64,000 nt of DNA, from contig JAFTIR010000017.1 in assembly GCA_017456765.1 (NCBI GenBank), forward strand, positions 9,248 to 73,247, read 5' to 3'. The stretch is from Clostridia bacterium. GTDB taxonomy: Bacteria > Bacillota > Clostridia > Oscillospirales > CAG-382. Position 1 is the stretch's first letter; every line of letters starts with the position of its first letter. Below, piece by piece: positions 1 to 64,000 of this stretch. The notes under the pieces were generated by a model. It was not told where the DNA came from and searched no databases. It saw nothing but the letters and a program-made list of their open reading frames with translations. A program made the translations under genes and the position numbers.

Positions 1-1
1 T

Positions 2-2476
2 GACGGTGAAACTGTTATTGACATAAACAAAAAAGCAAGCGAAATCTATTTCATTCTCACACTCTCCGGCAAGAGATGGCTCCGAGTTAAATACGGCTCC
101 GACCCCACAATTCTCGGTACGGCAACCTGCGACATCAGCGAACCTTTGAAGATTGTTGATACAGAATACTTCATGGCCGAGGTTGTTTACAAGGACGGAA
201 GACACGACACACATCTTCCCCTCAACCTTTGCACAGGCAGACACGGCATTGCGGGCGACATCAGCGTTTACGGTGTTCCCTGCGACGGCGAGGTTGAAAA
301 GCTCATTATTCACAACAGATTCCTTGACGGCGATGTAAACCTTGCGGCTGTAACGGTTAACGAAACAGACGAAAGACTTTACCCCGATATGCTTATTCCC
401 GAAAAGCCAAAAGCTATTGTGAGAGAAATCTCAAGTGAAAAGAAAATCTCTTATGACAGCGGTATTCTTACCATCAAGAACGGCGCACTCCTTATGATTC
501 TTAAGGCTTCAAAGGGTCTTGAATTGCTTGAAATGTCAAACGCTTACACACCCGACATGAATGTAAAGCGCGGAGCGCTTCTCAAGACAAGAGATGCTGT
601 GGGCAACATTAACGAAGCGTTTGAGCTTATAAGTGCAGATGTGGCTTCTGACAAGGCAACACTTGTATACGGCTACGAAGAAACAGAATTTGTTATCACC
701 GCAGACATTTCAGGTGCAAATAACGTGAAATGGAACCTTGAAGTAACAAACAAGGGCAGTGAAGAATTCAGAAAGGGTATCATATTCCCCGCGCTCTTTG
801 TTGACTACGGTTCCTTCGAGGACAACTGGTACTATCTTCCTACATATCAGAACATCGACAGCAACGAAACCTTCTATATGTACGAAGAATCGGCTCCCTC
901 ATTCCCGCTTCAGTTTATGGATGTTTACTACCCCGCAATGCAGGGAGGTCTCTGTCTTACAACCGAAGAAAGAGAAGTTGTCACAAGAAAATATTCACTC
1001 AGCAAAAACGATGCCGGTATCGATTTCTATGTAGAATATCCCATAATTTACGGCGATATTGCTCCCGGTGCAAGCTTCACCGCTTCTCCCTGCGTACTCA
1101 CCTGCCACGATGGCGGCTGGAAGAAAGCATACTACATTTACAAGCAGTGGCTCGACTCATGGTACACTCCTTACAAGTGTCAGGACAAGCAGTGGTACAG
1201 AGAAGCTTTCTGGCTCCTTGCCGAAATCACCGACTTCTTTGAAAACGAAGATATGTGTCAGTGGCCCTGCTGGTACAATGAAGAAAAGAATGAGTTCAAT
1301 TTCAGAAAGATTCTTGAAGAACAGAAGGGCATTACCGGTGTATATCCCGACATTCTTCATATGTGGTCATGGTGCTACACCTACCGTGACGGACAGTACG
1401 GCCAGCGTTGGGGCAACTTCGGAGACGTAGACTATGACAATTACGGCGGCGTTGACAACTTCAGAAATGCACTTCACGACATCAAGGACAACATGGGTGT
1501 CAACATTTCTCTCTATATGCATCCCACACTCCTTTCGGTTTGCTACGACAAGTACAAGGAGTTTGAAAACACAAGTCTTGTTAAGCATGAATCGGGCAGC
1601 AGAATCGGTGTTCACGGTGACTCTTTCAGAATGTGCCATGCCGAAGAAAAGTTCCGCGAGGCTTCACTTGCAATGTATCCGAGACTCTACAACGAGCTTA
1701 AGATTCCGCTTCTTTATGTTGACGAATTTTCTCTCAGAATCGGAAACAGATGCTATGCGGATGACCACGGACACCATGTGCCTTCAAATCTTCTTAAGAC
1801 TGACAGAGATTACATCTCACGCCTTAAAGACATAATGCCCGAAGAGGTAGTTCTTTACGGTGAATATGCGGCGGCAGACGTCAATGCAAGATACATTGAC
1901 TGTAACATCTCCTACTACATTCTCGACACCATTGTTGACATGATTGAAACAATGAAGAGAGCAAACGACGGTGACGACAGACTGTCCCGTGTATATATGC
2001 ACACATACAGATTCGCACTTCCCAAGATTGTTCAGCTCATTCTTCCCATGTCCATGAGAAATCTTTCATGGCATCCTCAGAAGTTCTTATTCTTCAATGC
2101 AGAAGCCATTTACGACTCCTTCTGGGACTGCGAAGAATCGAGAGGTCAGGACTTCACAGTTCACGCATACAAGTTAAAGAAAAAGTATGCTGACTGCTAC
2201 ACAAGTGACAATCCTGACACAATGATTGAAACAGAAAGCCCTGCTATCTGCATGAACAAGTTCCCCTCTAAGACATCTGACAGAGTTCTTTACAACGTAT
2301 ACAACAGAGCTTACTCCACATTCCGCGGTGTTGCACTCAAGGTTCCTCACAAGGAGGGTGCAAAATACTACGATGCATGGAATGACAAGGAGCTTTGCTA
2401 CAAGGTAGTTGACGGTATGGCTGAGCTCTATCTTGAAATCGGTGCTCAGGAAATGGGTTGTATTGTCATTGAATAA
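2..2476 (+). CDS. Large cytoplasmic protein of unknown function, tandem paralogue 1. The 5' end is cut by the window edge. The frame is open from base 2, so the TTG at 146 in the ORF track is not the start.
   Basis: Bases 1-145 translate in frame as DGETVIDINKKASEIYFILTLSGKRWL..., matching residues ~239 onward of the 2838..6056 product. Similarity continues to the stop codon. No family was recognised. Confidence 0.85.
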   Translation, partial: DGETVIDINKKASEIYFILTLSGKRWLRVKYGSDPTILGTATCDISEPLKIVDTEYFMAEVVYKDGRHDTHLPLNLCTGRHGIAGDISVYGVPCDGEVEKLIIHNRFLDGDVNLAAVTVNETDERLYPDMLIPEKPKAIVREISSEKKISYDSGILTIKNGALLMILKASKGLELLEMSNAYTPDMNVKRGALLKTRDAVGNINEAFELISADVASDKATLVYGYEETEFVITADISGANNVKWNLEVTNKGSEEFRKGIIFPALFVDYGSFEDNWYYLPTYQNIDSNETFYMYEESAPSFPLQFMDVYYPAMQGGLCLTTEEREVVTRKYSLSKNDAGIDFYVEYPIIYGDIAPGASFTASPCVLTCHDGGWKKAYYIYKQWLDSWYTPYKCQDKQWYREAFWLLAEITDFFENEDMCQWPCWYNEEKNEFNFRKILEEQKGITGVYPDILHMWSWCYTYRDGQYGQRWGNFGDVDYDNYGGVDNFRNALHDIKDNMGVNISLYMHPTLLSVCYDKYKEFENTSLVKHESGSRIGVHGDSFRMCHAEEKFREASLAMYPRLYNELKIPLLYVDEFSLRIGNRCYADDHGHHVPSNLLKTDRDYISRLKDIMPEEVVLYGEYAAADVNARYIDCNISYYILDTIVDMIETMKRANDGDDRLSRVYMHTYRFALPKIVQLILPMSMRNLSWHPQKFLFFNAEAIYDSFWDCEESRGQDFTVHAYKLKKKYADCYTSDNPDTMIETESPAICMNKFPSKTSDRVLYNVYNRAYSTFRGVALKVPHKEGAKYYDAWNDKELCYKVVDGMAELYLEIGAQEMGCIVIE

Positions 2477-2837: not shown

Positions 2838-5800
2838 ATGAGAAATTTATTAGACCTTACCTTTACAAGTCCCAACGGAATTGTAGAAAAGAAAAACGGC
2901 TCGCAGAGTCTTATTGCCAAAAGACCGCCTATCGGTGAAAAATTCAGTCCCCCTTACTCCATATTCAAATTCTTTATGGAAAACATCGGCGAGCTTGAAG
3001 AATATGTTGTTATCGAATACAACTGCTTTGGTATAAACCGTACTCCAAGTCGCTTCAAAGGACCTTTCATTACACTCAAAAAGGGAGAAGAAGATGTTCC
3101 GCTTTTCCGCTTTGACGACTTGACAATCGACGGAAACACACACTCAATAATTGTAAAAGCACCCGAAGGAAGCTTCACAAGTATGGATCTTTCATTCTAC
3201 TGTGACAAGGTACTTGAAGCACACCTTACAATTACAAAGCTCTATACCTGCAAAAAGTCTGAGCTTCCCGTTTCCTGCGAAAAGGGCATGAATGTTCCTT
3301 CAAAGAACTTTACTCCCGTTGACATTTCAGATAAATTTGACCTTGAATATGTCTTTGACGATTTTGACAGCCACAATGATTCAGGTCTTTTCTTCGACAA
3401 GGAAAATGTGACTCTCTATGGTGTTCCCTTTAATGTAAAGACAAGCGGAAAGAATCTGGTTGCAGCACCTCCCGCACCCGCAGAAAACGACGATATTATC
3501 GACAATTTCGGCAAGATGTGCAAGAGAAGAATCTGTCAGGCAATAAGCCGTGACGGCGAAACTGTTATTGACATAAACAAGAAAGCAAGCGAAATTTATT
3601 TTATTCTCACACTTTCGGGCAAAAGGTGGCTCAGAGTCAAATACGGCTCCGACCCCACAATTCTCGGTAGTGCCACATGCGACATCAGCGAGCCTTTGAA
3701 GATCGTTGACGTTGAATACTTTATGGCTGAAGTTGTTTACAAGGATGGAAGACATGACACTCATCTTCCTCTGAACCTCTGCACAGGCAGACACGGAATT
3801 GCAGGTGACATCAGCGTTTACGGTGTTCCCTGTGACGGTGAGGTTGAAAAGCTTATCATTCACAACAGATACCTTGACGGCGATGTAAACCTTGCAGCAG
3901 TAACGGTAAACGAGACAGACGAAAGACTCTATCCCGAAATGCTTATTCCCGAAAAGGATGAAAAGATTCAGAGAGTTATTGACAACGCACAGAAAGTATC
4001 TCTTGAAAACAACATTCTTACCTTAAAGAATGGCGCACTTTATATGAGCCTTGACATTTCCAAGGGTCTGAAGCTTCTTGAAATGACAAACGCATATGCT
4101 CCCGACATGAAGGTCAAGAAGGATACTATCCTCAAGACAAGAACAGCTGATGGCATAATTGACGATGTATTTGAGCTTGCAAATGCTTCTGTTATCGGAA
4201 ATTCGGCATACATTACATACAAATACGAGGGAACAGCCTTTGCTATTTCCGCTTTCCTTGAGGGCAAAGACAATGTAAAGTGGAATCTCTCAATTACAAA
4301 CAACGGCAGCGAAGAATTCAGAAAGGGTATCATCTTCCCCGAAATCCTTGTGGACTACGGCTCCTTCGCTGAAAACTGGTACTTCCTCCCTGCATATCAG
4401 AACATCGACAGCAACGAAACCTTCTATATGTACGAAGAATCGGCTCCCTCCTTCCCCATGCAGTTTATGGACACATATTCTCCTGCAATGCAGGGCGGTT
4501 TGTGTATAGCAACCGAAGAGAGAGAGCTTATTACAAGAAAGTACTCTCTTAACAAGAACGATGATGGTATCGACTTCTATGTTGAATATCCCATTATCTA
4601 CGGCGACATCGCTCCCGATGCCTCCTTTACAGCATCTCCCTGCGTAATTACTTGCCACGACGGCAACTGGAAGAGTGCATACAACCTTTACAAGACATGG
4701 ATTGATTCCTGGTATGCCCCCTACAAGTGTCAGGACAAGCAGTGGTACAGAGAATGCTTCTGGCTCCTTGCCGACATTACAGACTTCTTTGAAACAACAG
4801 ATATGCTCAACGATGACATGAGAAAACACACTGTATGGTACAACGAGGAAACCAAGACCTTTAATTACAGAAAGATTCTCGAATATCAGAAGGCTATAAC
4901 CGGAGTATATCCCGACATTCTTCACATGTGGAAGTGGAACTTCATGCTCCGCAAAAGAGCTGACGGTTCACTCGGCTCGGGCAACTGCTGGGGTAACTAC
5001 AACACGGAAGACTACGACAAGCTCGGCGGTAAAGAGGCTCTGAGAAATGCGCTTCACGACATCCGTGACAACATGGGCATTCAGGTTTCCCTCTACATGC
5101 ACCCGACGCTTCTTTCCAACTGCTATCCTCACCACGAAAAGTTCTACGAATCAAGCATGGTTAAGCACGAATCAGGTGGAAGAATCGGTCTTGCAGGCGA
5201 CTCCTTCAGAATGTGCCATGCTGAAGAGTCCTGGCGTGACTTCTCTGCTAACATGTATCCGAGAGTTTACAAGGACCTTGGTATTCCCCTTCTCTATGTT
5301 GACGAGTTCTCCCTTAGAATCGGAAACCGTTGTTACGCAGACAATCACGGTCACCACTGTCCGTCAAATCTTCTCAAAACAGACCGCGACTACATTGCAA
5401 AGCTCAAGGAAACCGTACCCGAAGAGGTTGTTCTTTACGGTGAATATGTGGCAGCCGACGTCAACGCAAGATACATTGACTGTAACATTTCCTACTATAT
5501 TCTTGACTCTATCATTGACATGATTGAAACAATGAAGAGAGCAAATGACGGTGACGACAGACTAAGTCGTGTATTCCTTCACACCTACCGTTTCGCATTC
5601 CCCAAGATTGTTCAGCTCATTCTCCCCATGGCAATGAGAAACATCTCATGGCATCCTCAGAAGTTCTTGTTCTTCAATGCAGAAGCTATCTACGACTCCT
5701 TCTGGGACTGCGAAGAATCACGTGGTCAGGACTTTACGGTTCATGCATTCAAGCTCAAGAAGAAGTATGCTGACTGCTACACAAGTGACTGTCCCGAAAC

Positions 5801-6056
5801 AATGATTGAAACAGAAAGCCCTGCTATCTGTATGAACAAGTTCCCCTCTAAGACATCTGACAGAGTTGTTTACAACATCTACAACAGAGCTTACTCCACA
5901 TTCCGTGGTGTTGCACTCAAGGTTCCTCACAAGGAAGGTGCAAAATACTACGACGCTTGGAACGAAAAGGAACTTTCCTACAAGGTAGTTGACGGCATGG
6001 CTGAGCTCTATCTTGAAATCGGCGCTCAGGAAATGGGCTGTATTGTTATTGAATAA
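2838..6056 (+). CDS. Large cytoplasmic protein of unknown function, tandem paralogue 2 (1072 aa, full length)
   Basis: AGGAGG RBS 8 nt upstream of the ATG. No signal peptide. The C-terminal ~830 aa are collinear with the first gene. Conserved acidic and His-rich motifs (YVDEFSLRIGNRCYAD.HGHH, FRMCHAEE) suggest an enzyme. A glycosidase-like fold is only a guess. Confidence 0.85.
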   Translation: MRNLLDLTFTSPNGIVEKKNGSQSLIAKRPPIGEKFSPPYSIFKFFMENIGELEEYVVIEYNCFGINRTPSRFKGPFITLKKGEEDVPLFRFDDLTIDGNTHSIIVKAPEGSFTSMDLSFYCDKVLEAHLTITKLYTCKKSELPVSCEKGMNVPSKNFTPVDISDKFDLEYVFDDFDSHNDSGLFFDKENVTLYGVPFNVKTSGKNLVAAPPAPAENDDIIDNFGKMCKRRICQAISRDGETVIDINKKASEIYFILTLSGKRWLRVKYGSDPTILGSATCDISEPLKIVDVEYFMAEVVYKDGRHDTHLPLNLCTGRHGIAGDISVYGVPCDGEVEKLIIHNRYLDGDVNLAAVTVNETDERLYPEMLIPEKDEKIQRVIDNAQKVSLENNILTLKNGALYMSLDISKGLKLLEMTNAYAPDMKVKKDTILKTRTADGIIDDVFELANASVIGNSAYITYKYEGTAFAISAFLEGKDNVKWNLSITNNGSEEFRKGIIFPEILVDYGSFAENWYFLPAYQNIDSNETFYMYEESAPSFPMQFMDTYSPAMQGGLCIATEERELITRKYSLNKNDDGIDFYVEYPIIYGDIAPDASFTASPCVITCHDGNWKSAYNLYKTWIDSWYAPYKCQDKQWYRECFWLLADITDFFETTDMLNDDMRKHTVWYNEETKTFNYRKILEYQKAITGVYPDILHMWKWNFMLRKRADGSLGSGNCWGNYNTEDYDKLGGKEALRNALHDIRDNMGIQVSLYMHPTLLSNCYPHHEKFYESSMVKHESGGRIGLAGDSFRMCHAEESWRDFSANMYPRVYKDLGIPLLYVDEFSLRIGNRCYADNHGHHCPSNLLKTDRDYIAKLKETVPEEVVLYGEYVAADVNARYIDCNISYYILDSIIDMIETMKRANDGDDRLSRVFLHTYRFAFPKIVQLILPMAMRNISWHPQKFLFFNAEAIYDSFWDCEESRGQDFTVHAFKLKKKYADCYTSDCPETMIETESPAICMNKFPSKTSDRVVYNIYNRAYSTFRGVALKVPHKEGAKYYDAWNEKELSYKVVDGMAELYLEIGAQEMGCIVIE

Positions 6057-6084: not shown

Positions 6085-6114
6085 GCCCCGACCTTCCGGT
6101 CGGGGCTTGTTTTT
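6085..6114 (+). terminator. Rho-independent terminator of paralogue 2
   Basis: GCCCCGACC-TTCC-GGTCGGGGC followed by TTGTTTTT. The stem is the same as at 2505 and 6593. Confidence 0.75.
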
Positions 6115-6588: not shown

Positions 6589-6614
6589 CAAAGCCCCGAC
6601 CTTTCGGTCGGGGC
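6580..6614 (-). terminator. Terminator hairpin downstream of the oxidoreductase gene
   Basis: GCCCCGACC-TTTC-GGTCGGGGC, 12 nt after the stop at 6626. On the minus strand it is followed by CTTTGGCTTTGT. Confidence 0.55.
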
Positions 6615-27258: not shown

Positions 27259-27279
27259 TAAAGTCATATGTTTTTTGAT

Positions 27280-27387
27280 GAGTTTGGGCGGTGGCGTTTA
27301 TGCCGACCAAACGGGGTTTGTTAAGCGACAATAAAGGTTTGTTTGTGACAAACATATGCCGTGAATATGCTGTCGGGCATTCCCGAC
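27280..27387 (-). repeat. Family B element, copy B1 (no heptamer array)
   Basis: Minus-strand reading: GTCGGGAATGCCCGAC-AGCATATTCACG...GTCGCTTAACAAACCCCGTTTGGTCGGCATAAACGCCACCGCCCAAACTCAT. Its first base is the G of the typA TAG stop codon. Confidence 0.8.
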
Positions 27388-29207
27388 TATTTGAGCTTTG
27401 CGTAAGCCTTAGCTCTGTTCACATTATTGAGAATCTGCTTACGAAGTCTTATGGACTTAGGTGTAACCTCGATAAGCTCATCGTCATTGATAAACTCAAT
27501 TGCCTCTTCAAGGGAGTGAATCTTGGGAGGCACAAGTCTGAGAGCTTCGTCCGCACCCGTCGAGCGCACTGCTGTCATGTGCTTCTTCTTGCAAGGGTTA
27601 ATTACAATATCGTCAGTCTTTGCATTTTCTCCGACAATCTGTCCCTCATAAATATCCTGTGCAGGAACAACAAACATCTGTCCTCTGTCCTGTACATTAT
27701 AGATACCGTAGGAGGTCGTCTTACCCGTTTCATACGCAACGAGAGAGCCTGTCGTTCTCTTTGTAATCTCTCCCCTGTAGGGTGTGTATTCAAGGAAAAG
27801 GGAGTTTATAATACCCTCGCCTCTTGTATCGGTGAGAAATTCGTTTCTGTAACCGAAAAGTCCGCGTGTCGGAATATGGAACACAACGTGCATTCTGTCA
27901 CCTCTGGGTGACATATCAATGAGCTCGCCCTTTCTTGCGCCCAGCTTTTCAATTACCGAGCCCATATATTCCTGCGGAACATCACAGGAAACTTCTTCCA
28001 TAGGCTCCATTTTCACTCCGTCGATTTCCTTGTAGAGTACCTTTGGAGCGCTTACCTGAAATTCATATCCCTCTCTTCTCATTGTTTCAATAAGAATTGA
28101 AAGGTGCATTTCTCCACGTCCCATAACTCTAAAGGCTTCGGTAGAGTCCGAGTCCTCAACCCTTAAGGAAACGTCCTTCAAAAGCTCGCGGTAAAGTCTT
28201 GCACGAAGGTGGCGGGACGTACAGAATTTGCCCTCTGTACCCGCAAAGGGTGAGTCGTTAACAGAGAAGGTCATCTCTAAGGTTGGCTCTGAAATCTTAC
28301 AGAAATCAAGCGGCTCGGGTGTGGTTGTATCGCAGAGAGTATCGCCGATTGTAACCTCTTCAATACCCGAAAGGCATACAATTTCTCCCGCCTTTGCTTC
28401 ATCGACATTTACTTTCTTAAGACCGTCGATTGTAAGAAGATTTACAATCTTTGCATTATAATTTGCATGAATACCGTGGTGGTGGCAGACGGTTACGTTC
28501 ATGCCTTTCTTTACAGTACCTCTTTCAATTCTGCCTGTTGCAATACGTCCTATAAAATTATCGTAGTCGATGTTTGAAACGAGCATTTGAGCAGGTCCTT
28601 CTTCGTCAACATCGGGACCCGGAACATGATTTATAATCTGCTCAAAAAGCGGAATAAGGTTTTCTTCCTGAATATCGGGAGAAAGGGAGGCTGTGCCATT
28701 ACGTCCAGAGCAGAACACAACGGGGCTGTCAAGCTGTTCATCTGTTGCATCAAGGGCAATAAGAAGCTCTAAAACTTCATCAACAACCTCAACAGGTCTT
28801 GCGCCGGGTCTGTCAACCTTATTAACAACAATTATAACCTTATGACCAAGCTCCAGTGCTTTCTGAAGAACAAAGCGTGTCTGGGGCATTGTACCCTCAA
28901 ATGCGTCAACAAGCAAAAGCACGCCGTCAACCATTTTGAGTATTCTTTCAACCTCACCGCCGAAATCCGCGTGACCGGGGGTGTCAACGACATTGATTTT
29001 TATGTCATTATATATAATTGAAGTGTTTTTTGCGAGAATGGTAATACCTCTTTCACGCTCTAAGTCATTTGAGTCCATTACTCTGTCGTCGACAACTTCA
29101 TTCTGTCGGAAAGTTCCCGACTGCTTGAGCATCTCATCAACAAGGGTTGTCTTGCCATGGTCAACATGGGCTACGATTGCTACGTTTCTTATATCATTTC
29201 TTATCAT
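27387..29207 (-). CDS. typA: Translational GTPase TypA/BipA
   Basis: AHVDHGKTT, DTPGHADF and NKVD G-motifs, an EF-G-like domain order, and 606 aa. Confidence 0.95.
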   Translation of the reverse strand: MIRNDIRNVAIVAHVDHGKTTLVDEMLKQSGTFRQNEVVDDRVMDSNDLERERGITILAKNTSIIYNDIKINVVDTPGHADFGGEVERILKMVDGVLLLVDAFEGTMPQTRFVLQKALELGHKVIIVVNKVDRPGARPVEVVDEVLELLIALDATDEQLDSPVVFCSGRNGTASLSPDIQEENLIPLFEQIINHVPGPDVDEEGPAQMLVSNIDYDNFIGRIATGRIERGTVKKGMNVTVCHHHGIHANYNAKIVNLLTIDGLKKVNVDEAKAGEIVCLSGIEEVTIGDTLCDTTTPEPLDFCKISEPTLEMTFSVNDSPFAGTEGKFCTSRHLRARLYRELLKDVSLRVEDSDSTEAFRVMGRGEMHLSILIETMRREGYEFQVSAPKVLYKEIDGVKMEPMEEVSCDVPQEYMGSVIEKLGARKGELIDMSPRGDRMHVVFHIPTRGLFGYRNEFLTDTRGEGIINSLFLEYTPYRGEITKRTTGSLVAYETGKTTSYGIYNVQDRGQMFVVPAQDIYEGQIVGENAKTDDIVINPCKKKHMTAVRSTGADEALRLVPPKIHSLEEAIEFINDDELIEVTPKSIRLRKQILNNVNRAKAYAKLK

Positions 29208-29307: not shown

Positions 29308-29436
29308 GTCGCCGCCGACTATCCACGACGCACGTTTGCGGTAAACAAACGTTTATTTTCGCTTAACAAACAACGTTTGGGCAGCATAAACACCACCGCC
29401 CAAACGCATTCCTAATTCCTAATTACTAATTCCTCA
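29308..29436 (+). repeat. Family B element, copy B2, with 4 heptamer units
   Basis: GTCGCCGCCGAC...TTCGCTTAACAAACAACGTTTGGGCAGCATAAACACCACCGCCCAAACGCAT followed by TTCCTAA TTCCTAA TTACTAA TTCCTCA. It ends 10 nt before the cysK stop codon. Confidence 0.8.
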
Positions 29437-29446
29437 TTTGAAAAAT

Positions 29447-35053: not shown

Positions 35054-35076
35054 TTGTTTTCCTTTCGTAAAAAATG

Positions 35077-35190
35077 AGGAATCAGGAATTAGGAATTAGG
35101 AATGAGTTTGGTCGACCTCGTTATGCCGACCAAACGGTGTTGGTTAAGCGACACTAAAAGCTTGTTTATGTCAAAGATTCCCCGTGAAAT
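35077..35190 (-). repeat. Family B element, copy B3, with 4 heptamer units, inserted between scfA and scfB
   Basis: Plus strand: AGGAATC AGGAATT AGGAATT AGGAATG then AGTTTGGTCGACCTCGTTATGCCGACCAAACGGTGTTGGTTAAGCGAC...CCCCGTGAAATC. This is the reverse complement of the family B consensus. Confidence 0.8.
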
Positions 35191-44181: not shown

Positions 44182-44210
44182 ATTGTAGCACATTTATTGT
44201 GATTTGTAAA
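44182..44210 (-). promoter_or_regulatory. Sigma-A-type promoter for topB
   Basis: On the minus strand: TTTACA, 17 nt, TACAAT. The -35 element is 8 nt from the heptamer array. Confidence 0.45.
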
Positions 44211-44218
44211 GAGGGAAA

Positions 44219-44267
44219 GGGAATTAGGAATTAGGAATTAGGAATTAGGAATTGGGAATTGGGAATT
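44219..44267 (+). repeat. Heptamer tandem array (RGGAATT)x7 with no family B core
   Basis: GGGAATT, AGGAATT x4, GGGAATT x2, preceded by a degenerate AGGGAAA unit. Confidence 0.9.
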
Positions 44268-44314
44268 AGAAGTACAAGTCGAGGCGGATAAAGTGTGAGA
44301 TGCATTGTTTAGAG

Positions 44315-44752
44315 ATCCCGCACTCTGCGAAGTGCGTTTTCCGTCACTTTTGTCGCAGCAAAAGTGACCAAAACTGCCCACTCATGTGTCGGGACTTTTA
44401 GATGTCCCGACACGAGCCGTGGAGGCTCTTTTTTATACTCAACACAGAATTTGAGAAAAGTTTTAGATGTGTTCTCACTACTCCACGTGTATTTGCCTGC
44501 CTTTGGCAGGCTATAGCCTCGCAAAGCGAGGCAAACCACATCTATTAGTGGAAAGAGAAAAAAATCTTTAAAAAAATTTCTCCGAAGATAAAAGAGCCTT
44601 CGCGGCTCGGGCAAAATCTTGAAAAATTTTGCCCATGAGCGACACCTTTTGGTTACTTTTCGGTGACGAAAAGTGACAGAAAACGCGGCTCTCGGAGCGG
44701 AGAACTTTTGGTTCTTTTGTTTCGGGACAAAAGAACAGAAAACCCGCCTCTT
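44315..44752 (+). repeat. Family A element, copy A3 (full length, with an extra H1 module at the right end)
   Basis: Left arm 44315-44430: ATCCCGCACTCTGCGAAGTGCG-TTTTCC-GTCACTTTTG..CAAAAGTGAC...CCCACTCATG-TGTCGGGAC..GTCCCGACA-CGAGCCGTGGAGGCTC. Centre 44492-44536: TTTGCCTGCCTTTGGCAGGCTATAGCCTCGCAAAGCGAGGCAAAC. Right arm 44594-44752 is the mirror image. Confidence 0.85.
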
Positions 44753-44830
44753 CCATATATTGATTGATGACAAATGCAAGTATTTGATGTAAAATATACA
44801 CAGATATTCTGAAATTAACGGAGAAGAATC

Positions 44831-53781: not shown

Positions 53782-54005
53782 GCGGGGGAGTCCCCGCTGA
53801 CAATTCACGTTATATTCTCGTGCAAAGCAAGCCCTCGTAGTCGCTTAACGAACCCCGTTTGTCGGGAAAGCCCGACAGCAATTCACGTTATATTCTCGTG
53901 CAAAGCAAGCCCTCGTAGTCGCTTAACGAATACCATTTGGTCGGCATATACGCCACCAACTAAACTCATTCCTAATTCCTAATTCCTAATTCCTAATTCC
54001 TAATT
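53782..54005 (+). repeat. Family B element, copy B4: a tandem one-and-a-half-mer with 5 heptamer units
   Basis: A 50-nt block (ATTCACGTTATATTCTCGTGCAAAGCAAGCCCTCGTAGTCGCTTAACGAA) occurs identically at 53804 and 53881. It is followed by TTTGGTCGGCATATACGCCACC..AAACTCAT and (TTCCTAA)x5. The element fills the whiA-dnaE gap. Confidence 0.85.
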
Positions 54006-54010
54006 TTATC

Positions 54011-55608: not shown

Positions 55609-55707
55609 ACAGTTCTCCTTATACATTTATTCATTATAAGTATAGCATGGATTTGTGAATTTGTGAAGTGGTTTTATGTTTTTTATTGCAAAATTTAGTC
55701 TACAAGA

Positions 55708-56020
55708 ATTCCGCACTCTGCGGAGGGCGTTTTCCGTCACTTTTGACACAGCAAAAGTAACCAAAACTGCCCACTCTGCAAAAAAATTACCGCTACGCTC
55801 AGATTTTTTGCGAGCCGTGGCGGCTCTTTTGACCTCAACGAAATATTAGAAAAAGCTCCGATTTTATTCTCACTATTAAGGTGTGGTTCGCCTCGCCTTG
55901 CGAGGCAATAGCCTGCCAAAGGCAGGCAAACCATGTGGAGTAGTGAGAGAAAAATATAAGTTTTCTCCAATTCTGCGTAGAAAACAAAAAAGAGTCGCCC
56001 TCCGCAGAGGGCGAAACATT
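55708..56020 (-). repeat. Family A element, copy A4 (centre inverted relative to A3/A5/A6; one arm shortened)
   Basis: ATTCCGCACTCTGCGGAGGGCG-TTTTCC-GTCACTTTTG..CAAAAGTAAC...CCCACTCT-GCAAAAAA..TTTTTTGC-GAGCCGTGGCGGCTC. Centre 55886-55931: GGTTCGCCTCGCCTTGCGAGGCAATAGCCTGCCAAAGGCAGGCAAAC. It ends in the CGCCCTC..GAGGGCG hairpin. Confidence 0.8.
55981..56013 (-). terminator. Rho-independent terminator of mgtE, formed by the terminal hairpin of repeat A4
   Basis: On the minus strand: CGCCCTC-TGCG-GAGGGCG followed by ACTCTTTTTTGTTTT, 26 nt after the mgtE stop codon. Confidence 0.7.
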
Positions 56021-60367: not shown

Positions 60368-60400
60368 ATTGTTACCTGTCTTTCTTATTATTTCGTAAGA

Positions 60401-60799
60401 ATTTCGCTTCTGCGGAAGCGACTTTCTTTTGTCCCGCGACAAAAGAAAGCAAAAACGCTCCACTCATGTGTCGAAAACTCCGCTTCGCTCCGTAACATTC
60501 GACACGAGCCGTGGCGGCTCTTTTTTATACTCTACTCAAAGTTAAGATAAGTTTTGGTTTTTTTCTCACTACTTCATATAGTTTGCCTGCCTGCGGCAGG
60601 CTATAGCCTCGCAGTGCGAGGCGAATCACGCTTATTAGCGTGAAGAGAACTTAAACTTTTGGAAATATTATGTTGAGCTTGAGCCTCCACGGCTCGCAAA
60701 AAATCTGAGCGAAGCGGTAATTTTTTGCAGAGTGGGCGCTTTGGGTTACTTTTGGCGAGTCAAAAGTAACGTAAAACGCAGTCAGCAGACTGCGGAACT
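60401..60799 (+). repeat. Family A element, copy A5 (full length)
   Basis: The arms carry TCGCTTCTGCGGAAGCGA, CTTTCTTTTG..CAAAAGAAAG, CCACTCATG-TGTCGAA..TTCGACA-CGAGCCGTGGCGGCTC. Centre 60581-60626. The mirror arm ends ...GTTACTTTTG..CAAAAGTAAC-GTAAAAC-GCAGTC..GACTGCGGAAC. It ends 1-2 nt from the ylbF-like stop codon. Confidence 0.85.
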
Positions 60800-63552: not shown

Positions 63553-63605
63553 ATTTTTTCTCTTTTCTATAATTGTTTATACGATTTAACTTACACATAA
63601 GAAGT

Positions 63606-64000
63606 ATTCCGCGGCTTGCGAGCCGCGTTTTCCGTTCTTTTGTCCCGAAACAAAAGAACCAAAAATTCTCCACTCATGTTTCGTGACTTTTTGAGGTCAC
63701 GAAACGGGGCGTGGTGCCCCTTTTCAACCCTCTACGCAGGAAAGCATAAACTTATATTTTTTCACTCTCTACTCCACCTGTGTTTGCCTGCCCTTGGCAG
63801 GCTATAGCCTCGCAAAGCGAGGCAAACCACGCTTGTTAGTGGAAAGACACTCGGAGGTTTTGGAATCATTTCGTTGAGGGCTAAGAAGAGCCTCCGCGGC
63901 TCGTTCGGGACCTCAAAAAGTCCCGAACATGAGCGGTCGCTTTGGGTTACTTTTCGCGAGTGAAAAGTAACGGAAAACGCACTCCCAAGTCGTGCGGAAC
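63606..64000 (+). repeat. Family A element, copy A6 (apparently complete, ending at the window edge)
   Basis: ATTCCGCGGCTTGCGAGCCGCG-TTTTCC-GTTCTTTTG..CAAAAGAAC...CCACTCATG-TTTCGTGAC..GTCACGAAA-CGGGGCGTGGTGCCCC. Centre 63782-63827. Mirror arm: GAGCCTCCGCGGCTC-GTTCGGGAC..GTCCCGAAC-ATGAGCGG...GTTACTTTTC..GAAAAGTAAC-GGAAAAC-GCACTC..GTGCGGAAC. Confidence 0.85.

Follow-up and report, generated by a model that had tools for sequence, protein, structure and literature searches.

Several kinds of short, hairpin-forming repeats are known from the spaces between bacterial genes. The repetitive extragenic palindromic (REP) sequences and bacterial interspersed mosaic elements (BIMEs) of enterobacteria and pseudomonads are high-copy intergenic hairpins that form alternating-orientation mosaics of few module types, often at gene 3' ends, and keep their structure across differing sequence classes. 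REPINs have two inverted arms that pair with each other, and compensatory change in them has been read as a sign of a single-stranded intermediate. The Correia elements of Neisseria and the BOX and RUP elements of Streptococcus pneumoniae are genus-specific, modular (BOX is A-B-C), non-coding and intergenic, measure 100-450 nt, have inverted ends, can carry terminators or promoters, and break assemblies. The ends of IS200/IS605 elements and of the related PATEs, small elements found in many phyla, carry a subterminal hairpin that is specific to one strand and conserves an imperfection, and next to it a short sequence that pairs with another. Here we compared with these systems a set of hairpin-built repeats of ~200-450 bases, named family A, six copies of which (A1 to A6; 180-460 nt) occur in a stretch of 64 kb of contig JAFTIR010000017.1 (hereafter the window, the whole of the DNA analysed) from an uncultured rumen Clostridia-class bacterium, the contigs of which stem from ruminant gut metagenomes.

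Family A is a family of mosaic hairpin repeats that is new and specific to its lineage. Its members are roughly palindromic, with two inverted arms around a central twin hairpin, and the order of each arm from the outside inward is H0 (a GC-rich hairpin with a TGCG loop and a T-run), H1 (an A/T-rich hairpin of 9-10 bp), a linker (CCAAAA..CYCRCTC), H2 (a variable hairpin), H3 (a 5-bp GC hairpin with a T-run), a spacer and half of the central twin hairpin. Across copies and related species the data support that pairing rather than sequence is kept in H0, H1 and H2, most strongly for H1 and for a predicted pseudoknot that H1 forms with its flank. We see roughly an even chance that family A is a non-autonomous mobile repeat of the BIME or MITE (miniature inverted-repeat transposable element) kind with single-strand structural modules.

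Like REP sequences and BIMEs, family A consists of short, multicopy, intergenic palindromes (H0, H1, H2, H3 and centre) in inverted arms that form an alternating-orientation mosaic. In contrast to them the foot of its hairpins bears no GTAG/CGTC tag: TTC/ATT stands before the foot of H0, CATG before that of H2 and C before that of H3, and GTGGAGTAG, which includes GTAG, is found only at a distance of ~15 nt from the centre hairpin, not adjoining it. Furthermore, no RAYT gene was seen in the window and ~17 kb of flanks, where the listed genes are housekeeping genes, there are more kinds of module, among them a predicted pseudoknot, and the host belongs to another class of bacteria (Clostridia). 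The two inverted arms recall REPINs, but they have diverged and only the local hairpins are maintained. As in MITEs, the H0-H1 shell is inverted at both ends of a non-coding element of less than 500 nt. Correia, BOX and RUP, compared by description, share size, lack of coding capacity, inverted ends, modularity and intergenic position with family A, for which neither a target duplication nor a parent insertion sequence was identified and the end motif of which is common to several phyla. Family A has the end features of IS200/IS605 elements and PATEs named above, along with small size and occurrence of the motif in many phyla. Whereas IS200/IS605 ends are not mutual inverted repeats, the arms of family A are inverted and the strand favoured by H1 switches between arms; no TnpA or TnpB lies nearby, and the pairing of the end motif goes into the hairpin loop and not to a cleavage site. 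The likeness of H0 and H3 to intrinsic terminators is one of form (GC stems and T-runs right after stop codons), and they differ in being part of a repeated composite with loops and flanks conserved between unrelated genes. Family A is thus set apart from REP/RAYT systems by the foot tag, from REPINs by arm pairing, and from IS200/IS605 derivatives by its inverted ends.

Pairing and sequence change in the hairpin modules

A first-pass annotation of the window had proposed that the hairpins at 63668-63935 keep their pairing while their sequence changes. These coordinates cover the interior of copy A6 only, the full extent of which is ~63604 to past 64000, with the following parts:

63610-63627, plus strand: left H0, CGCGGCT-TGCG-AGCCGCG, then TTTTCCG; terminator-like on the inward-reading strand
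63630-63675, minus strand (outward): left end module, GAGTGG-AGAA-TTTTTGG followed by the H1b hairpin; its plus-strand CCACTC is at 63670-63675
63634-63659, plus reading: H1b, GTTCTTTTGT-CCCGAA-ACAAAAGAAC
3' of H1b, plus reading: left linker, CAAAAATTCT-CCACTC-ATG
63679-63704: left H2, TTTCGTGAC-TTTTTGAG-GTCACGAAA
63706-63720: left H3, variant GGGGC-GTGGT-GCCCC, then TTTT
63786-63823: central twin hairpin, GCCTGCC-CTT-GGCAGGC, TATA, GCCTCGC-AAA-GCGAGGC
63888-63902: right H3, GAGCC-TCCGC-GGCTC
63904-63927: right H2, TTCGGGAC-CTCAAAAA-GTCCCGAA
between right H2 and H1a, plus reading: right linker, CATGAGCGG
63931-63975, plus strand (outward): right end module, GAGCGG-TCGC-TTTGGG-(TTACTTTTC GCGAGT GAAAAGTAAC), in which TCGC pairs with the loop bases GCGA to give a predicted pseudoknot
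~63946-63971, plus reading: H1a, the hairpin of the right end module
63978-63996, minus strand (inward): right H0, CGCAC-GACTTGGGA-GTGCG, then TTTTCCG

The claimed stems were located by regular expression on the window, among them:

2594-2629 (A1) and 60469-60504 (A5): H2 stem TGTCGAA/TTCGACA
44387-44412 (A3): H2 stem TGTCGGGAC/GTCCCGACA
44609-44634 (A3, right arm): H2 stem GGGCAAAAT/ATTTTGCCC
60696-60728 (A5): H2b stem GCAAAAAAT/ATTTTTTGC, exact
~2646-2680 (A1) and ~55777-55811 (A4): H2b stem GCAAAAAAAT...ATTTTTTGC, with one extra A
eight element positions: H3 stem GAGCC N5 GGCTC
55712-55729, 63610-63627 and 60404-60421: H0 stems

All listed stems were found and are self-complementary, and the usual H3 and its GGGGC variant in the left arm of A6 are as had been described. 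Two details needed correction: the GCAAAAAAT/ATTTTTTGC stem assigned to A1, A4 and A5 is exact in A5 only, and the H0 variant CGCACTC..GAGGGCG of A4 carries one A.G mismatch.

For the quantitative comparison the stems were anchored on invariant loops, arms were drawn from three sources (window, strain contigs, related species), and each distinct arm pair was counted once; significance was judged by re-dealing the 3' arms at random in 5000 rounds. H0 was paired in 96.2% of 105 cells with at least two Watson-Crick types at 7/7 positions (0/5000 shuffles; slid registers 24-45%), H1 in 95.4% of 108 cells with at least two Watson-Crick types at 4/9 positions (0/5000; slid registers 51-58%), and the short-loop class of H2 in 100% of 62 cells with at least two Watson-Crick types at 7/9 positions (1/5000; slid registers 27-55%). 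H3 was paired in 95.0% of 20 cells, varied at 2/5 positions with one compensated variant, and its value was reached by 1196/5000 shuffles (slid registers 33-56%), so that H3 taken alone is too sparse to be informative and not significant. The centre stems are invariant among copies, only their loops differing as had been noted, and therefore tell nothing about covariation in either direction. The earlier inference that structure is maintained thus stands for H0, H1 and H2 (95-100% paired) and draws almost no covariation information from H3 and the centre. By count, the H1 core (CTTTTS-N6-8-SAAAAG) occurs 10 times against 0.28 expected, and the H3 pattern 9 times against 1.0 expected.

New perfect stems were also met in relatives, namely TGTCGGAA/TTCCGACA and GGCAAAAT/ATTTTGCC in one (L141) and TCGGCAC/GTGCCGA (H0) and TGTCGGAAT/ATTCCGACA (H2) in a metagenome contig (L155). 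In general the loops and linkers are conserved and the stems variable; in H0 and H2 the stems are free provided that they pair. The short-loop H2 variants are equal in length and have common flanks (CTCATG ... C-GAGCC) and a related loop (TTTTnnAk). Among them the TGTCG series (TGTCGGGAC, TTTCGTGAC, TTCGGGAC, and TGTCGGAA and TGTCGGAAT from the relatives) differs by one to three pair changes, all of them compensated, and GGGCAAAAT and GGCAAAAT hold a different stem in the same frame. The long-loop H2 (TGTCGAA...TTCGACA) and H2b (GCAAAAAAT...ATTTTTTGC) have unrelated stems around a common loop core, CCGCTTCGCTC. Because of these constant loops and linkers the H2 variants are best regarded as positional homologues and not as unrelated palindromes dropped in; the argument concerns the slot and leaves aside how the stem changes arose.

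The arms of one element need not agree with each other. In A6 they differ in H1 (H1b and H1a), in H2 (TTTCGTGAC and TTCGGGAC) and in H3 (GGGGC and GAGCC), and in A3 and A5 the H2 of one arm is of another class than that of the other. Complementarity between the arms is thereby lost while the local hairpins are still perfectly paired, so that the structure under conservation can be neither one long hairpin as in REPINs nor a cruciform of the whole element. Two whole elements fold with z = -11.9 and -7.8 against dinucleotide shuffles.

The end module and its strand

H1 and the adjoining CCACTC are not confined to this lineage, contrary to the earlier view of the family as local to this genome. 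The search pattern, the H1a hairpin with its 3' linker (GTYACTTTT-N8-AAAAGTRACCMAAA), was found at at least 118 loci of GTDB species genomes in at least 8 phyla (phylum assignments taken from record titles), while a control in which the five outer bases of the stem were reversed gave 5 loci. The hosts include Gamma- and Alphaproteobacteria, Bacteroidota (with Balneolales), Clostridia, Patescibacteria, Nitrospirales, Fusobacteriota, Omnitrophota and one Coriobacteriaceae genome, and several genomes have multiple loci. The plus-strand CCACTC is the reverse complement of the GAGYGG of the end motif, and GAGCGG recurs in alpha- and gammaproteobacterial copies.

When 137 distinct copies are aligned without gaps and read on the outward strand, the search pattern being on the other one, the result is 5'-GAGYGG-X4-TTTTGG-TTACTTTTN-loop-N'AAAAGTRAC-3'. 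Two features of this alignment do not follow from the search itself. First, at stem pair 18-39 U-A is present in 91 copies, U.G in 43, C-G in 2 and another combination in 1; this imperfection is a wobble on the outward strand and would read C.A on the opposite one. Second, a non-nested helix joins the four bases that precede TTTTGG to the first four of the loop. Its cells are paired in 67.7% against 40.2 +/- 1.7% in shuffles (0/500; slid registers 28-50%), its covariation score is 0.634 against 0.216 with all four Watson-Crick pair types common, all four pairs form in 34/98 distinct combinations against 2.9 expected, and its wobbles favour the outward strand 35 to 17. In the arms of the window itself the helix covaries as CAG/CTG, TCGC/GCGA, CACC/GGTG and CGG/CCG, and in H1b arms GAA/TTC stands against GCG/CGC.

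A covariance model, as had been proposed for the family, was built from the alignment of the end motif. This model (R1), from the training set of which H1b arms were absent, nevertheless found these arms on the outward strand with 19.6-23.9 bits (E ~1e-4 to 2e-3), including the left end of A6 (63630-63674, minus strand; 23.6 bits, E ~1.7e-4). The right end module of A6 scored 47.0 bits, and H1a arms scored ~20 bits higher on the outward than on the inward strand.

The covarying non-nested 4-bp helix identifies the end motif, H1 plus CCACTC, as a predicted strand-specific pseudoknot, which the first-pass annotation had not described, and together with the one-strand wobble it argues that H1 works as a folded single strand and not as a duplex or cruciform. 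Of the three forms that had been considered (RNA, single-stranded DNA (ssDNA), cruciform), the first two are thus favoured for H1 and the last is not. Since G.T is the mildest mismatch in DNA too, the H1 pseudoknot data do not separate RNA from ssDNA. The geometry of U.A-U triples is known from the telomerase and SAM-II pseudoknots; here the U-rich linker of 6 nt would pass through the major groove of the 10-bp helix, beside the U4/A4 pairs and in parallel with the A4 strand, and such triples would account for the invariant T4, A4 and linker.

The motif is terminal, because in two copy pairs from the same genome (L102, L109) similarity begins no further than 8 nt from the GTTAC end. Across ~126 loci it had no orientation bias with respect to neighbouring gene ends and no bias in stop-codon distance, and its neighbours are housekeeping genes, e.g., aminoacyl-tRNA synthetases. 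An association with TnpB, IscB or RAYT was supported neither by clustering of the neighbouring proteins nor by inspection of adjacent ORFs (open reading frames). Two inverted 92-nt copies at L061:2600-3943 flank a gene with a Fic domain, which is not a transposase. With only 2 matches in viral contigs the motif is not phage-borne; plasmids had no blastn match, with possible interference by the filter for low complexity. Rfam 15 returned no relevant match at the gathering score or at E up to 1-5 for the window and 13 motif-bearing loci; a match to the sX5 small RNA in L081 lies outside the motif without overlap, and a weak CRISPR-DR6 match at 28084 is unrelated. None of attC, dif/parS, CIRCE-like operators and CRISPR repeats fits, as judged against their consensus sequences, and a literature search by sequence strings returned nothing relevant to the motif.

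We tentatively propose, as a possibility that falls short of probable, that the end module, 5'-GAGYGG-X4-UUUUGG-(UUACUUUUN-X'4..-N'AAAAGURAC)-3', is a previously undescribed strand-specific H-type pseudoknot at the terminus of small repeats in at least 8 phyla, serving as a common handle of a widely distributed mobilising or processing enzyme or as protection of RNA ends, with family A as one lineage's elaboration. Its sequence, covarying pseudoknot and known strand would make it a searchable handle for a cross-phylum enzyme or RNA function, and would make testable how non-autonomous bacterial repeats without an obvious transposase propagate.

Further observations concern the end motif outside family A. 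It heads small (~90-400 nt), hairpin-rich repeats in many phyla (L017-L134, GTDB genomes). At L081:798-2829 there are six copies, four of them tandem at ~385-nt spacing, and L120:5208-5877 is a 670-nt palindrome with the motif. In a subgroup of Clostridia metagenome-assembled genomes (MAGs; L017, L036, L043, L049, L051, L052, L058, L060, L073, L089, L093, L126-L129) the element is only ~60 nt long: a GC hairpin, the TCGCC loop of which is conserved while its stems covary (GCGC, GCAC/GTGC, GACC/GGTC, GCCC/GGGC), followed by GTTACTTTTCTTGAAAGAAAAGTAAC-CAAAAGAACTTT; it often lies 8-24 nt downstream of a housekeeping stop codon, and a repeated ACTTTT permits an alternative hairpin in place of the pseudoknot.

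The opposite strand is of interest for H0 and H3. On the inward strand H0 reads as a GC stem closed by a UGCG (UNCG-type) loop and followed by a T-run, and H3 as a GC stem with T4-6, so that both have the form of putative intrinsic terminators. A consensus terminator scan called H0 at 63610-63627 (plus), 60794-60777 (minus), 56014-55995 (minus) and 60404-60421 (plus), and H3 at 60506-60520 (plus). Such hairpins stand directly after the stop codons of mgtE, ylbF and a methyltransferase gene, and the repeats thereby add terminator-like hairpins between essential genes. The inward, terminator-like strand is opposite to the outward strand favoured by the pseudoknot; if both strand readings are true, the element blocks incoming transcription and carries structured ends that read outward.

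Insertion status and explanations of the family

The copies, all of them intergenic and amid genes of the dcw cluster, recA, topA, dnaE and mutS, are as follows:

2544-2725: A1, short form with H1b, H2a, a single H3, H2b and a partial H1a; between tandem paralogous genes of ~1070 codons
6119-6587: A2, hybrid with H0, H1a and H3 in the left arm and, on the right, a longer 'cargo' domain followed by H1b; after the second paralogue
44314-44766: A3, the fullest copy, with an extra H1b at the right end
55707-56014: A4, in inverted orientation; its right H0 is the terminator-like hairpin just after mgtE
60399-60799: A5, between mutS and ylbF
63604-64000: A6, between hsp33 (minus strand, start 63552) and the upstream methyltransferase gene; runs off the window end

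The remainder of A6 beyond the window is L006:9486-9552, followed by an (AGGAATT)n array, and a seventh copy lies just outside the window end (L006:8035-8345). The window, which also holds secDF and hsp33, has about one site of hairpin-built repeats per 10 kb. No transposase was seen among the Pfam-listed genes, which cover the window ends and ~7.7-54 kb and leave parts of the window uncovered.

Syntenic contigs of relatives were retrieved via YlbF homologues, and the relatives are labelled here by YlbF identity. The spacers compare as follows:

methyltransferase-hsp33: 485 nt in this species; 32 nt in the 86% relative; 13 nt in the 76% relative
ylbF-mutS: 433 nt in this species; 53 and 61 nt in the 86% and 76% relatives
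mgtE-murB: 430 nt in this species; 128 and 119 nt, with plain terminators, in relatives

At the first site the 84% relative has a different, cargo-type member of the family. At the second site the 84% relative has nothing but a heptamer array, the 92% relative a repeat of another family (family B) and the 90% relative another A-like element. As orthologous sites are empty (13-61 nt against 430-485 nt) or occupied by other members, the elements are, by this comparison, most probably insertions; they are placed between the end of the upstream gene and the conserved promoter of the downstream one.

On the reading as a non-autonomous mobile repeat, a lineage-specific burst of non-coding elements would have landed between gene ends and the next promoters. 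Since the local hairpins, loops and linkers are conserved and the fold-back between arms is not, the hairpin modules would function as folded single strands. The outermost GAGYGG-X4-TTTTGG-H1 on the outward strand, with X4 pairing into the H1 loop, would be the handle for a trans-acting enzyme that copies or moves the element, for which there is precedent in the HUH ssDNA transposases, which recognise hairpins. The putative terminators H0 and H3 on the inward strand would insulate neighbouring transcription units.

Several points weigh against this reading. No target-site duplication could be defined, the empty orthologous sites being too diverged, and comparison at strain level uncovered no empty site: the elements are fixed throughout the strains sampled, with L009 as a possible exception. 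Neither a transposase nor a recurrent protein was found beside the end motif in ~126 loci by protein clustering and inspection of ten adjacent ORFs. Different members at one site across species could reflect recombination at a hot spot or gene conversion instead of transposition. The clade-specific modules rest on ~20-25 arms only, and the scarcity of G.T in H0, H2 and H3 means that a single-strand requirement is not proven for these modules.

It is rather unlikely that the host uses the elements as cis-acting RNA structures (terminators, insulators, stabilisers of untranslated regions, processing sites), kept paired by selection on transcripts and spread by recombination. The terminator-like hairpins right after the three stop codons, the U.G tolerated on only one H1 strand with the covarying pseudoknot helix, and, in cargo-type members, a domain that stands 5' of the pseudoknot on its strand and has a long-range helix with covariation would all suit such a role, but the H1/pseudoknot strand is opposite to the terminator-like one, the motif is not oriented with respect to gene ends, close relatives do without elements at the same sites, and Rfam has no match.

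We consider it improbable that family A consists of unselected palindromes of the DNA, the perfection of which is upheld by a mutational mechanism, e.g., intrastrand template switching (quasipalindrome correction) or conversion between copies, with later shuffling by recombination. H0, H2 and H3 are nearly pure Watson-Crick (of 187 cells, 4 are G.T and 5 are mismatched in other ways), intermediates with only half of a change were not seen in them, and their variants are discrete and shuffled among mosaic copies; stepwise RNA-style compensatory evolution is thus not demonstrated there, and these modules are equally compatible with a palindrome-perfecting process at the DNA level and with selection on structure. 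The shared loop core of long-loop H2 and H2b on unrelated stems, with one loop that looks inverted, points the same way. Against it, the one-strand wobble of H1 persists uncorrected in ~31% of the 137 copies across phyla, the pseudoknot helix covaries though it is not a simple palindrome, and loops and linkers more conserved than stems are unexpected without constraint. That the H2 slot was filled by independently inserted palindromes, the alternative raised in the first-pass annotation itself, is very unlikely, since the near absence of shared sequence between GGGCAAAAT and TGTCGGGAC and the frequency of nested, mosaic architectures in family A are outweighed by the common length, flanks and loop of the short-loop variants and by the compensated changes of the TGTCG series.

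One strain contig (L009:1-386) is identical to A6 (window 63553-64000) up to H3, continues with a different spacer/centre variant and has a TGTCGAA-type H2 in its right arm; it represents either recombination or a module swap between copies, or an assembly chimera.

Longer members and neighbouring repeats

Cargo-type members are A2, copies in the MAGs SIG639 and RGIG8792, and a copy in the 84% relative. The cargo domain (125-300 nt) lies 5' of the end module on the same strand and runs ...GAGAGGTAAGCCGCCACGGCGAAGGAGAG...CCATCTCTCCTTTT, and its long-range helix varies in concert (AGAGGAGA/TCTCCTCT, AGAGGGGA/TCCCCTCT, AGGAGAGA/TCTCTCCT); RNAalifold on five cargo copies gave only 3 covarying pairs, the sequences being too few. 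A 26-codon ORF in one cargo copy was rejected as coding because it is interrupted in another. Judging by the similarity of the H3 hairpin (GAGCCGCCACGGCTC) to the AAGCCGCCACGGCG hairpin of the cargo domain, the H2/H3/centre type may be a derived, shortened form of the cargo type, which with five alignable copies is only suggestive.

The inner modules have a narrow distribution. A central 18-mer had single chance-level matches only in GTDB genomes, a longer centre pattern had no match in JGI metagenomes, and the H2a-arm pattern had 0 matches in GTDB genomes and was found in 1 metagenome contig (L155); the nearly empty scan of this last pattern indicates that the H2/H3/centre type is confined to this species group.

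Family B intergenic repeats occur at 27278-27367, 29320-29409, 35121-35188 and 53786-53998, and at L143:690-830 and L144:600-712. They contain a GGGGAGTCCCC hairpin, CAATTCACG..., GTCGCTTAAC... and a CCAAAC...hairpin, are also present in related species, and fill the ylbF-mutS site of the 92% relative.

Heptamer arrays of (AGGAATT)n/(AGGAGTT)n, sometimes followed by inverted (CCTCATT)n, were found at 29397-29439, 35072-35114, 44208-44269 and 53959-54007, and at L006:9510-9552, L139:10460-10560 and L013:5330-5350. They flank family A elements just outside H0, are found where family B repeats end, and stand alone at the ylbF-mutS site of one relative; their unit is similar to the outermost GGAATT(C) of the element.

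The contigs with close YlbF homologues are mostly ~0.7-3.5 kb long, many of ~1 kb stop near the gene, and those checked (L141-L144) end inside or beside flanking repeats, which appear to fragment short-read assemblies of this clade. Such breaks at hairpin repeats shape what rumen metagenomes yield.

Three near-identical terminator hairpins, GCCCCGACC-N4-GGTCGGGGC, flank A1 and A2 (2507-2528, 6087-6108 and 6592-6613) and are a further small repeat, distinct from H0. The tandem paralogues of ~1070 codons beside these two copies (window 1-2476 and 2838-6056, with L152:6448-9639) have a weak DUF6259 match and share 72-89% DNA identity across long stretches.

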